A stretch of 4,241 nt of DNA, from IMG/VR virus record IMGVR_UViG_2778261564_000010; one strand, given 5' to 3'. The notes under the pieces are model-generated. The model did no database searches. It had not been told where the DNA came from and saw only the letters and a list, made by a program, of their open reading frames with translations. The stretch is from a virus (lineage: Duplodnaviria; Heunggongvirae; Uroviricota; Caudoviricetes). A program made the translations under genes and the position numbers. The first letter of the stretch is position 1. Every line of letters begins with the position of its first letter. Below, piece by piece: positions 1,836 to 4,241 of this stretch.

Positions 1836-2005
1836 TATTCCCCCTACAATCAATGTGCAATAACATTTAAACACACCTCAATTTAGCCGGACATATAAAT
1901 ATCTAAACCAGAAAAAATCACTTACATAGCGTTACAAACTCTTTAGTCTAAATATTCATCGTAAAACATTCCCCATACTTATCAGCCCGTTCTGCGCCAG
2001 GTAGC

Positions 2006-2293
2006 TCATTGCCTTATCTGGGAATCTGTAATCAGGTTTCCGGATGCTGGTGGATTTTCGCATTTTAGTTGTTCATAAAAGTGCACAGCTTTAACCAGTT
2101 CTTCTGATGTAACCGGGACTGGCGGGGCAGTGAATAAGGCCTGAATTTCATAGTTCGGCCTGTCGTTACAATCCTCTTTTTTCGGTACATATTTCCAGTC
2201 ACCAGACCACTACTTCCCCTGAAAGTCCGTAACGCCTTTTTTTCACGTAGCGATATCGCCATGCCACTGTTTTTGCTTGCCCCGCCGTTTCAT
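2006..2293 (-). pseudogene. Decayed reading frame with two in-frame stops
   Basis: One minus-strand frame starts at ATG 2293 (AGGAAGG upstream): MKRRGKQKQWHGDIAT-TGA(2243-2245)-KKGVTDFQGK-TAG(2210-2212)-WSGDWKYVPKKEDCNDRPNYEIQALFTAPPVPVTSEELVKAVHFYEQLKCENPPASGNLITDSQIRQ-TGA(2006-2008). The long 3' segment looks protein-like but has no usable start codon. Confidence 0.3.
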
Positions 2294-2317
2294 GCCCTTC
2301 CTGATAATTAACCTCGC

Positions 2318-2494
2318 TCATTCATCGCCCCACTCATCACAATATGCTTCGACCGGAGTTTTTCCTGCTTCATAATCATCACGCCATGCTTCAGCATCAG
2401 CAGCACTGCCACCACGTAACTCTGCATAGTCCATTAACAGTTCATGCCATTCTTCAAAACCGACGTTGTATTTAGTTGAACCAAAATCAGCCAT
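2318..2494 (-). CDS. Small acidic protein (58 aa), unknown function
   Basis: Hand translation: MADFGSTKYNVGFEEWHELLMDYAELRGGSAADAEAWRDDYEAGKTPVEAYCDEWGDE. The ATG overlaps the stop of the upstream gene (AAATGGCTGA) and GAGGAAG lies upstream. Absent from the track because it is under 60 aa. Weak motif similarity (KYN near the N-terminus, YCxxW near the C-terminus) to the 70-aa protein at 3767..3979. Confidence 0.5.
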   Translation of the reverse strand: MADFGSTKYNVGFEEWHELLMDYAELRGGSAADAEAWRDDYEAGKTPVEAYCDEWGDE

Positions 2495-2669
2495 TTTGTT
2501 CTTCCTCTTCGTCTTTTATTTCGTGATATGAGTAATTGCAGTAGTTAAAGAAAATATCTTTTGCTTCGTCATGTATTTCATCAGGCGTCGCATCATCATC
2601 CACTTCGAATTCATCCTCGAAATCTCCACCGGCTATTCCCGTTTCAATAATTATTTTAAACTTTCGCAT
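2487..2669 (-). CDS. Small, strongly acidic protein (60 aa), unknown function
   Basis: Track ORF with ATG start: MRKFKIIIETGIAGGDFEDEFEVDDDATPDEIHDEAKDIFFNYCNYSYHEIKDEEEEQNG, about one third D/E. The start codon sits 7 nt downstream of the H hairpin element. Coupled to the downstream 58-aa ORF. Confidence 0.6.
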   Translation of the reverse strand: MRKFKIIIETGIAGGDFEDEFEVDDDATPDEIHDEAKDIFFNYCNYSYHEIKDEEEEQNG

Positions 2670-2676
2670 TTAACTA

Positions 2677-2697
2677 CCGCCCTTTCGGGCGGCCTCC
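2677..2697 (-). promoter_or_regulatory. H element copy 2: GGAGG plus GC hairpin with GAAA loop, immediately 5' of a start codon
   Basis: Minus strand GGAGG-CCGCCC-GAAA-GGGCGG, then 7 nt, then ATG at 2669. The 23-nt core (plus strand taccgccctttcgggcggcctcc, 2675-2697) is identical to 3739-3761. Confidence 0.6.
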
Positions 2698-2724
2698 TGA
2701 TGTTCTGAGGGTGCAGAAATCCCT

Positions 2725-2781
2725 CCGGTTAAGGATTAAATTTTTAACAGAGCTAAATTTAATTATTCAGTTCTGGATTTT
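2725..2781 (-). promoter_or_regulatory. P' element: AT-rich conserved promoter/operator-like element with dyad symmetry
   Basis: Homologous to 3987-4048 (ccggttaaggattaaattttt...aatttaattattcag versus ccagttaaggattaaatttta...aacttaattattcag). Contains inverted repeat ATTAAATTT (2735-2743) / AAATTTAAT (2755-2763) with an 11-bp spacer. Overlaps the stop of the upstream 118-aa gene. Confidence 0.45.
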
Positions 2782-3119
2782 GTCGCCCTGCGTATCCGCG
2801 CTTTCGCGTTACGCTCAATCTGAATTAGCTTTTCTATATTTTTTCGCCTTTCCCGCTCCTCCTGACGCAAGAGCCTTACATCATCTGCCAGTCTGGTTTC
2901 TCTTTTCGCCACAGAGAGCATCCAGTCAAATGGTTCCACAACTGCACCGCAGATTTTACAGCGGACCTGACGCTCTTTTTCGTCAACCCGGACAGAGGCG
3001 TGATGACAATATGGTCTTTCCGATGGCTCATAAAGAAAATTAACCTGATTACGAGGGTCATCCTCTTTTACCGGAAATAAAACGATATTGCTTAACTCAT
3101 CCTCTGGTTTTATTTCCAT
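2763..3119 (-). CDS. Zinc-ribbon-like protein with basic helical C-terminus (118 aa), unknown function
   Basis: Track ORF 2763..3176 begins at a GTG immediately preceded by TGA. The preferred start is ATG 3119, preceded by AAGGAGAGGAGC. Translation: MEIKPEDELSNIVLFPVKEDDPRNQVNFLYEPSERPYCHHASVRVDEKERQVRCKICGAVVEPFDWMLSVAKRETRLADDVRLLRQEERERRKNIEKLIQIERNAKARIRRATKSRTE, with a C-H-H...C-x-x-C cluster followed by an Arg/Glu/Lys-rich tail. Confidence 0.65.
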   Translation of the reverse strand: MEIKPEDELSNIVLFPVKEDDPRNQVNFLYEPSERPYCHHASVRVDEKERQVRCKICGAVVEPFDWMLSVAKRETRLADDVRLLRQEERERRKNIEKLIQIERNAKARIRRATKSRTE

Positions 3120-3240
3120 GCTCCTCTCCTTTGATGCGAATGCCAGCGGTAATTGAAGCCTGATAGCTAATTTCACTCACAGTACCGCCTCCTGAAAATT
3201 TAATGAACAATTCAATACGTTCTTTGGTAATAGTGGTCAT
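3097..3240 (-). CDS. Small protein (47 aa), unknown function; overlaps the start of the downstream gene
   Basis: ATG 3240 preceded by AAGGAG at 6 nt, overlapping the TAA of the upstream gene. Translation: MTTITKERIELFIKFSGGGTVSEISYQASITAGIRIKGEEHGNKTRG. Ends at TGA 3097-3099, 23 nt past the ATG of the downstream gene in another frame. A diverged copy of this segment exists at 4051-4164. Confidence 0.4.
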   Translation of the reverse strand: MTTITKERIELFIKFSGGGTVSEISYQASITAGIRIKGEEHGNKTRG

Positions 3241-3250
3241 GTGTTACTCC

Positions 3251-3514
3251 TTAACCCGCAGTGCTTTCAACTGATGAGGGGAACAAAATCTTTTCATCAA
3301 ACCCTGCATTCATATCATGAACAGCAACACACCAATCCATCGACGAACGATTATCAAGAGCCTCCATGATTTCATCCATGCGGCGTAGGTCATACAGGTA
3401 AATGCTTTTATCGCCAATGGTGTAAAAGCCAATTTTTTTCGGTGATGGACAGCGCTCAAGAACTTCCTGTAATTCGTTCAACCATGCCCGTTCTTTTTTT
3501 GTCAAAGTTGCCAT
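3251..3514 (-). CDS. Hypothetical protein (87 aa)
   Basis: Track ORF 3251..3604 begins at a TTG. The preferred start is ATG 3514, preceded by AAGGAA, 1 nt after the stop of the upstream gene. Translation: MATLTKKERAWLNELQEVLERCPSPKKIGFYTIGDKSIYLYDLRRMDEIMEALDNRSSMDWCVAVHDMNAGFDEKILFPSSVESTAG. Confidence 0.65.
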   Translation of the reverse strand: MATLTKKERAWLNELQEVLERCPSPKKIGFYTIGDKSIYLYDLRRMDEIMEALDNRSSMDWCVAVHDMNAGFDEKILFPSSVESTAG

Positions 3515-3515
3515 A

Positions 3516-3734
3516 TCAGTTTTCCTTATACGGATTAATTTTATTGTGCAGTGTGTTGAATGACGCCCATACCACGTCGTTATACAATTCAGTAACTGGC
3601 TCAATTATTTTCCCGATTGCCCAGACAAAAATTAGAGGGGATATCGGTATCATCAATACGATAAACAGAATGAGAAACAAAAATTCTGTCGCCCTACTTT
3701 TTTGCGGATATTCTTTTCTGAATAATGTAGTCAT
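3516..3734 (-). CDS. Small single-pass membrane protein (72 aa), unknown function
   Basis: Track ORF with ATG start, 6 nt downstream of the H hairpin element. Translation: MTTLFRKEYPQKSRATEFLFLILFIVLMIPISPLIFVWAIGKIIEPVTELYNDVVWASFNTLHNKINPYKEN, with one hydrophobic helix at about residues 17-41 flanked by charged residues. The stop is adjacent to the start of the 87-aa gene. Confidence 0.6.
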   Translation of the reverse strand: MTTLFRKEYPQKSRATEFLFLILFIVLMIPISPLIFVWAIGKIIEPVTELYNDVVWASFNTLHNKINPYKEN

Positions 3735-3740
3735 TTCTTA

Positions 3741-3761
3741 CCGCCCTTTCGGGCGGCCTCC
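3741..3761 (-). promoter_or_regulatory. H element copy 1: GGAGG plus GC hairpin with GAAA loop, immediately 5' of a start codon
   Basis: Minus strand GGAGG-CCGCCC-GAAA-GGGCGG, then 6 nt (TAAGAA), then ATG at 3734. The 23-nt core is identical to copy 2 although the flanking genes are unrelated. Confidence 0.6.
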
Positions 3762-3766
3762 CGACA

Positions 3767-3979
3767 TTAATCGTTGTGGTAACTCATGGCTTCATTTGCA
3801 GCATCAACCGGATCAACCTCCCACCAGCAATAATTTGGTGCGTTTCCTTCAGGTGTCCACGGTTCCAATTCATTTTTTGCCACATTCTCGTCGCCAGTAA
3901 TTTTAAAAATCTGCTCAGAGAATTTTTTCACCCACTCGTTATATTTTTCAGTGTTAATAATTTTCTGTGTATTTGACAT
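3767..3979 (-). CDS. Small acidic protein (70 aa), unknown function
   Basis: Track ORF with ATG start preceded by GGAGGT at about 7 nt. Translation: MSNTQKIINTEKYNEWVKKFSEQIFKITGDENVAKNELEPWTPEGNAPNYCWWEVDPVDAANEAMSYHND. Lies immediately downstream of the P element. Confidence 0.65.
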   Translation of the reverse strand: MSNTQKIINTEKYNEWVKKFSEQIFKITGDENVAKNELEPWTPEGNAPNYCWWEVDPVDAANEAMSYHND

Positions 3980-3986
3980 AGATATA

Positions 3987-4048
3987 CCTCCAGTTAAGGA
4001 TTAAATTTTATTTACAGTGCTGAACTTAATTATTCAGATTTGGATTAT
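3987..4048 (-). promoter_or_regulatory. P element: AT-rich promoter/operator-like element upstream of the 70-aa gene
   Basis: Second copy of the roughly 60-bp conserved element (see 2725-2781). Ends in the GGAGG used as SD for the ATG at 3979. Contains TGTAAATAAAAT, a possible -10-like sequence. No transcription start can be called confidently. Confidence 0.4.
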
Positions 4049-4050
4049 GC

Positions 4051-4164
4051 TTTCTCTTCACGAAGTTCCGATTGTTAATTTGGCTCACAACAGCACCTTC
4101 TGAAAATTACCCTGATAGAAAGCCAGTACACGCTGCATAGCTTCGCTCTTCCGGCACTCGCTAC
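4051..4164 (-). other. Degenerate partial third copy of the cassette, truncated by the IS
   Basis: Minus-strand ...TAATTTTCAGAAGGTGCTGTTGTGAGCCAAATTAACAATCGG... aligns with the 3180-3215 region (...AAATTTTCAGGAGGCGGTACTGTGAGTGAAATTAGCTATCAGG...) but with frame-disrupting differences, and then joins directly to sequence resembling the last codons of the 118-aa gene. No intact ORF. Confidence 0.4.
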
Positions 4165-4241
4165 TGAACCGCCCCGGGAATCCTGGAGACTAAACTCCCT
4201 GAGAAAGAGGTAAACAGGATGACTAAAAATACACGTTTTTC
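4165..4241 (+). mobile_element. IS3-family insertion sequence, left end (IS629/IS1203-like), continues beyond window
   Basis: TGAACCGCCCCGGGAATCCTGGAGACTAAACTCCCTGAGAAAGAGGTAAACAGG followed by ATGACTAAAAATACACGTTTTTC matches my memory of the IS629/IS1203 left terminal repeat and orfA start. Unverified recall. Confidence 0.7.
4219..4241 (+). CDS. IS3-family transposase OrfA, first 7 codons only
   Basis: ATG at 4219 preceded by GAGG; translation MTKNTRF... Partial at the window edge. Confidence 0.65.

Follow-up and report, generated by a model that had tools for sequence, protein, structure and literature searches.

The DNA analysed here is a stretch of 4,241 nucleotides (the window) from the IMG/VR virus record IMGVR_UViG_2778261564_000010, and the subject is three short genes on its minus strand, p58 (2318..2494), p60 (2487..2669) and p70 (3767..3979), named after the lengths of their products. 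A first-pass annotation, made from the letters of the sequence, had taken these products for candidate DNA-mimic or anti-defence proteins. Our analysis established that all three are real genes under purifying selection and that they belong to already catalogued, uncharacterised families. The acidity of p58 and p60 turned out to be a selected family trait and no compositional accident. An anti-defence or DNA-mimic role of these two proteins is plausible and was neither supported nor refuted by the computation; both are reasonable candidates for an anti-defence screen, p70 being unremarkable. The reading that we prefer, held tentatively and at somewhat below even probability, is that p60 and p58 bind, as small stoichiometric ligands, to basic host-protein surfaces that contact nucleic acids, and in it we infer both the mode of binding and the class of target. 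The same proposal for p70 is given less weight.

Reality, charge and kinship of the three genes

The open reading frames (ORFs) of 58, 60 and 70 aa lie exactly where the first-pass annotation had placed them, all on the minus strand, and the same genes are annotated by RefSeq in near-identical prophages. Comparison with diverged alleles gave dN/dS values of 0.02-0.23 for p58, 0.00-0.27 for p60 and 0.26 for p70. The RefSeq annotation, the low dN/dS and the protein-level homologues in distant phages and plasmids are the grounds on which the three were accepted as genes. p58 was assigned to PHROG 519 (phrog_519, E=5.5e-22) and p60 to the Pfam family DUF7167 (PF23768, 55.1 bits) as well as to PHROG 1997 (phrog_1997), while the Trp-rich, moderately acidic p70 matched PHROG 4659 from end to end (phrog_4659, E=4.8e-51, 1-70 of 70).

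An Asp/Glu (D/E) content of 25-33% had been ascribed to all three proteins. It was confirmed for p58 (27.6%) and p60 (33.3%), but p70 reached only 18.6%. Calculation of pI and net charge showed p58 and p60 to be strongly acidic (pI 4.05 for both, net charge -12 and -15, K/R content 6.9% and 8.3%, respectively) and p70 moderately so (pI 4.47, net charge -7). The acidity extended to the relatives, the median DUF7167 sequence having 27.5% D/E and a net charge of -11 (63 diverse sequences) and the median p58-family sequence 25.9% D/E and likewise a net charge of -11 (19 sequences). Among 83 small annotated coding sequences (CDS) of the fetched neighbourhoods, at least 25% D/E was noted in nine, every one of which belonged to the p58 or the p60 family. 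The strongly negative, family-conserved charge by which a DNA mimic may be judged is thus a property of p58 and p60, the charge of p70 being only moderate.

Distant paralogy of p58 and p70 had been proposed on the strength of two shared motifs, KYN and YCxxW. Both are literally present in the two proteins, but KYN and YC are not conserved within the p58 family. As BLASTP aligned the two proteins with E=0.41 and hhalign gave p70 a probability of 0.3% against the p58 family, the paralogy was rejected. p58, p60 and p70 belong to three unrelated families.

Searches with PADLOC and NCBIfam as well as sequence and profile searches of the PDB gave no match for p58, p60 or p70, and neither did literature searches with accessions and peptide motifs or the supplements of anti-defence screens. 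The AlphaFold2 (AF2) models of p60 and p58 matched no solved structure, and no DNA-mimic fold was recognised. DNA mimics are not known to share a common fold, and because of this the absence of a fold match does not exclude mimicry.

The DUF7167 and PHROG 519 families

The match of p60 to PF23768 lies above the cut-off of 24.4 bits and aligns residues 2-53 with profile positions 1-60 of 60; its relatives in RefSeq carry the name 'DUF7167 family protein'. An exhaustive search yielded 99 cluster representatives of DUF7167, nearly all of them stand-alone proteins of 50-60 aa. p60 is a typical member that has the motif ...ETG..G...E.FEV.DDAT.EEIEE.A.D..FN..NYGW, the stand-alone architecture and the acidity in common with DUF7167 and PHROG 1997 and differs from them in no feature. 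The AF2 model of p60, built on an alignment of 63 sequences, has a pLDDT of 90 and consists of a beta-hairpin (residues 2-8/17-23) and a helix (29-43). Conserved positions of the family are E22 (97%), D24-D26, T28, E30, E31, D34 and D38, the acidic ones forming a patch where strand 2 ends and the helix begins. Tandem duplications of DUF7167 within one polypeptide (P0270 and P0278, 105 and 129 aa) give a hint of a dimeric working unit. A literature search found no paper on DUF7167.

Members of DUF7167 were detected by tblastn in Enterococcus Herelleviridae, Klebsiella Guernseyvirinae, Pseudomonas phages and large Escherichia phages, and Foldseek against BFVD added phages of Lactococcus, Stenotrophomonas and Streptomyces. 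In Klebsiella Guernseyvirinae and Enterococcus Herelleviridae the gene overlaps exonuclease genes, and in metagenomic phage contigs it stands beside genes of a GyrA-like topoisomerase subunit and a ligase, or beside NrdD/NrdG. The order in temperate phages is N - Ral - Y8K6 - DUF7167 - cIII - Kil - RecT or, in others, GamL - RecT ... DUF7167 ... Ea22. These contexts are early or DNA-metabolism gene clusters in many phage groups, and DUF7167 had no constant neighbour across those examined.

p58 aligns only with profile positions 76-137 of the 143 in phrog_519, and therefore some members of PHROG 519 have extra N-terminal sequence. Conserved in the family is the pattern W16...GGSAADAxAW..DY..GKTP..A(Y/W).DEWG. 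The AF2 model, based on a shallow alignment (pLDDT 81), is a Trp-rich three-helix bundle (helices 13-27, 34-42 and 47-55), for which structure searches brought up generic helical matches only. Homologues occur in virulent Ackermannviridae (55-60% identity), in one Autographiviridae phage (44%), in lambdoid prophages and in 554 plasmids, 516 of them conjugative; the family is also found in IncT and other MOBH plasmids. The homologue of IncI2 plasmids is 88% identical and forms part of the string CaiF-like regulator > DUF1187 > p58 > SPFH > NfeD > genes of the type IV secretion system (T4SS). In the IncI2 mcr-1 plasmid p14EC047a (L011/L104, record positions 26161-28793) this string starts with a CaiF/GrlA-like regulator, and the p58 homologue overlaps its own upstream gene by 8 nt (ATGGCTGA), as in the prophage. 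Because the neighbours of p58 vary, its partner would be a host rather than a phage protein.

In the window the start of p58 overlaps the stop of p60 by 8 nt with the same sequence, ATGGCTGA, and on account of this overlap the two genes are probably translationally coupled. In 79 of 80 related IMG/VR loci p58 comes immediately after p60, and among E. coli prophages the two genes move as a pair.

Operon setting and cassette junctions

The best DNA matches of the window were lambdoid prophages and phages of E. coli, with 97.6% identity in a 16-kb record filed as a plasmid, 98% in many chromosomes and 94% in the phage vB_EcoS-640R1. In these relatives the genes are ordered, in the direction of transcription, as cro-like, YdaT/cII-like, replication genes, DUF1627 and DUF977, followed by p70, the gene of a DUF4014 membrane protein, p87, p47, the Zn-ribbon-like p118, p60 and p58, and then by a pseudogene, hokD/sok, rem, DUF968 (YdfU), RusA and a gene in the antiterminator position, which is Q in the phage and plasmid-labelled records and DUF1133 in the chromosomal relative. 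The window corresponds to the nin position of lambda in a lambdoid prophage of the Rac/Qin/Stx-like kind, with the replication genes on one side and the RusA/antiterminator genes on the other, and p70, p60 and p58 are internal cistrons of one long, minus-strand rightward delayed-early operon. The earlier description of the genes as promoter-proximal had to be abandoned, as in the relatives they lie several kb downstream of the cro-side early promoter region.

A different order, p118-p70-p60-p58-Ea22-like-DUF4014, was seen in ArgO145. In this phage (L003, 5800-7750) and in Stx2a phages the p118-p70-p60-p58 block belongs to the leftward early operon, where it stands between the recombination genes and int (ea/exo-xis region), and it is flanked by Ead/Ea22-like genes.

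The first-pass annotation had also set two of the genes directly behind so-called P/H elements. Repeats upstream of p70 and p60 are indeed real, but they show no promoter or terminator signal and are inter-cistronic in the relatives. Two kinds were distinguished, both on the minus strand. Element A (repeats D1/D4) is present at 2715..2782, where it comprises the p118 stop within the all-frame stop motif TGAATAATTAA, an A/T-rich spacer and a GGAGG with no ATG after it and continues into element B, and at 3980..4049, where it holds the stop of the DUF977-family gene and a GGAGG Shine-Dalgarno sequence 7 nt before the p70 ATG. Element A either provides p70 with its ribosome-binding site or, where p70 is missing, passes straight on to B with no ATG in between, as it does in 78 of 88 copies (fetched loci and window). 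Element B (repeat D5) is composed of GGAGG and the hairpin GCCGCCC-GAAA-GGGCGGU; the copy at 2675..2700 ends 5 nt before the p60 ATG, and the one at 3739..3764 precedes the DUF4014 gene directly after the p70 stop. Among 68 copies of element B (67 from related loci, one from the window), 53 precede p60 and 10 precede DUF4014. The stable 7-bp hairpin with its GNRA loop ends 4-5 nt before the ATG of either gene. Element B looks like a hairpin-bridged ribosome-binding site, in which folding would put GGAGG about 7 nt from the start codon. Hairpin-bridged sites of this type are present in phage T4 genes 38 and 25, and the hairpin between GGAGG and ATG in element B is reminiscent of their leaders.

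A consensus scan, which non-consensus promoters would escape, detected no sigma-70-like sites on the minus strand at 2700-2790 and 3980-4050, and the total number of such sites equalled the shuffled expectation. No U-tract follows the element B hairpins, which were not called as terminators, and sok was the only match of an Rfam search. With neither sigma-70-like sites nor U-runs at the hairpins, the repeats were dismissed as promoters or terminators and the genes as morons with promoters of their own. Elements A and B are read instead, from their sequence and position, as inter-cistronic cassette junctions. p70 occurs in about 8 of the 80 related IMG/VR loci as a presence/absence cassette between elements A and B; this, together with the other gene order and the opposite early operon in Stx2a-type phages, suggests that cassettes are shuffled by recombination at the junctions.

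In L030 (match at ~4001-4174), the sole related locus without p60, a deletion has joined the opening codons of p60 (MRKF...) to p58 in the same reading frame, and p58 there follows the hairpin leader of p60.

Between p70 and p60, outside the acidic set, four co-directional cistrons occupy 2763..3734 of the minus strand, encoding the DUF4014 membrane protein (3516-3734), p87 (3251-3514), p47 (3097-3240) and p118 (2763-3119). p118 combines a Zn-ribbon-like CHH...CxxC segment (a weak match to the TFIIB Zn-ribbon, below the cut-off) with a highly basic C-terminal helix. p118 usually adjoins the p60-p58 pair on the upstream side, with the order p47 > p118 > p60 > p58 kept in most of the 80 related loci, and it is conceivable that the basic p118 is a partner of the acidic pair. 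Directly downstream of p58, two ORFs of 40 and 65 aa (1956-2321, minus strand), with an ATGA overlap at the p58 stop, match a gene that RefSeq marks, in near-identical prophages, as frameshifted and containing an internal stop; the position after p58 is held in ArgO145 by an Ead/Ea22-like gene.

Farther downstream the window contains a complete hok/sok locus of the hokD type (1242-1397, 1395-1566 and 1156-1173, all on the minus strand). It consists of a gene for a 51-aa Hok toxin, a full-length match to the Rfam sok model (106.7 bits) and a hairpin with a U-run, resembling an intrinsic terminator, downstream of hok. The sok match lies immediately next to the hok start and covers the leader of the hok mRNA, the stretch that encodes the sok antisense RNA. 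A plasmid leading region, the first guess made from hok/sok, was ruled out, the best matches being lambdoid prophages with cro, replication genes, RusA and Q. At the other end, the last ~90 bases of the window (4154-4241, plus strand) are the end of a multi-copy IS3-family element, whose transposase ORF starts at 4219 and which occupies up to 50 places per E. coli genome. The element interrupts the DUF977-family gene, which immediately precedes p70, in its C-terminal part, and the same DUF977/IS junction was identified in one E. coli genome.

Possible roles of the acidic proteins

According to the preferred reading, p60, p58 and, less certainly, p70 would bind other proteins stoichiometrically and be produced soon after induction or infection, p60 and p58 each consisting of one small folded acidic domain. 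Their targets would be the basic surfaces with which host nucleases, restriction or defence proteins, or replication/recombination factors bind nucleic acids, and the occupied proteins would be modulated or inhibited, which amounts to anti-defence or host take-over in a broad sense. Consistent with it are the family-wide acidity of p58 and p60, the acidic patch of DUF7167, the placement in early operons and the spread over very different mobile elements, and also the proximity of DUF7167 to Ral, GamL, RecT and exonuclease genes in other phages with no constant phage-encoded partner. A more ambitious version, quite unlikely in our estimate when its two parts are taken jointly, makes DUF7167 a pan-phage DNA-mimic-like inhibitor and PHROG 519 a second general anti-defence factor. 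The acidic patch of DUF7167 would then fill the site at which a conserved host enzyme of DNA-end processing or restriction, present in both Gram-negative and Gram-positive hosts, binds DNA.

Several observations weigh against the proposal of host-protein binders. Each domain has only ~55 residues, which would let a monomer imitate no more than a short length of duplex. The conserved non-acidic residues of DUF7167 (T28, I32, F41, N42, Y/W46 and Y/W48) and the conserved W16, W37, Y41 and G44 of p58 suit any specific fold or interface, not mimicry in particular. The p58 homologue of IncI2 plasmids lies ~15 kb from mobC, where a leading region would not obviously be expected. The acidity of p70 is unexceptional, a level reached by 16 of the 83 neighbouring small CDS, and its distribution is very narrow, with the only finds coming from Escherichia/Shigella prophages and eight phage records. 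In this particular prophage the upstream IS3-family insertion may impair read-through from the early promoter into p70...p58. Finally, no experimental data on the three families were found in the searchable literature.

The niche of the genes invites comparison with the exo-xis proteins of lambda and Stx phages (Ea8.5, Orf60a, Orf61, Orf63, Orf73 and Ea22), small early proteins that tune lysis-lysogeny, induction or the host cell cycle. That p58, p60 and p70 are developmental or host-physiology modulators of this type and not anti-defence proteins would agree with the location of the ArgO145/Stx2a block between the recombination genes and int/xis with its Ead/Ea22-like flanks, and with the DUF7167 member between Ral and cIII/Kil in other temperate phages. 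We nevertheless regard it as unlikely, since p58 and DUF7167 homologues are carried by the strictly virulent Ackermannviridae, Herelleviridae and Guernseyvirinae and by plasmids, where a lysis-lysogeny role makes no sense, and tblastn revealed no similarity to lambda. The overlap of p60-family genes with exonuclease genes in two unrelated virulent phage groups, the DNA-metabolism clusters of the metagenomic phage contigs and the vicinity of RecT/Gp157 in temperate phages raise another option for p60, that of an accessory factor of the phage's own replication or recombination, for example an acidic adaptor or regulator of an exonuclease or single-stranded DNA-binding protein (SSB). The neighbouring enzyme always differs, however, being a 454-aa annotated exonuclease, a 180-aa exonuclease, a GyrA-like protein, radical-SAM/NrdD or a distant RecT, and in the window p60 adjoins the Zn-ribbon protein and p58; with no constant partner, such a function seems rather improbable.

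Two further explanations were considered, both of them very doubtful. p58 in particular might be an anti-CRISPR protein, given that it is small and acidic like many Acrs and that Kuttervirus members of PHROG 519 were flagged as Acr candidates by PaCRISPR/AcRanker via AcrHub with borderline scores of 0.48-0.54 (PMC9409062). These scores lie at the threshold and are predictions only, from predictors that favour any small acidic phage protein. No Aca-type HTH gene adjoins p58 or p60 in the window, where the neighbours are p118 upstream and the frameshifted pseudogene downstream, and none adjoins p58 in the relatives; nor was an adjacent HTH gene seen in the Ackermannviridae or plasmid contexts of p58. 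The presence/absence polymorphism of p70, missing from most related loci where A is joined to B, and the variable gene order among phages might alternatively mark all three as functionless or near-neutral filler ORFs of a mosaic region, moved by cassette shuffling. This is hard to reconcile with the purifying selection on each of them and with the motifs and acidity that p60 and p58 keep at 35-60% identity across distant phages and plasmids.

If the more ambitious version of the reading is true, p60 and p58 would represent two widespread, structurally new anti-defence families. Were p60 to inhibit defence or repair, a function could be assigned to DUF7167, a family present in phages of Escherichia, Klebsiella, Enterococcus, Lactococcus, Pseudomonas and Streptomyces, and the same activity of p58 would supply one for a protein common to phages and the IncI2 plasmids that spread mcr-1. 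The outcome of the analysis is a ranking of the candidates for anti-defence screening and a corrected model of the locus, with internal cistrons and cassette junctions in place of promoter-led units.

T7 Ocr, plasmid ArdA, T4 Arn, lambda Gam, T7 Gp5.9 and AcrF2/AcrIIA4 are acidic DNA mimics. p58 and p60 resemble them in being small proteins of mobile elements with a pI of ~4 and a net charge of -12 to -15, encoded in early operons, and in some phages DUF7167 is found near Ral, GamL and Lar-like genes. No homology or fold similarity to mimics of the Ocr/ArdA/Gam/Gp5.9 type was detected. In such mimics surface carboxylates imitate the phosphates of B-form DNA, usually in a dimer, and the acidic patch and the tandem duplications of DUF7167 are indirect hints of an arrangement of this kind. 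With the accessory proteins of the lambda nin and exo-xis (ea) regions the three have in common the niches, the short packed or overlapping cistrons and the cassette shuffling. They differ from these in that tblastn detected no lambda homology, and p58 and p60 occur outside temperate phages as well.

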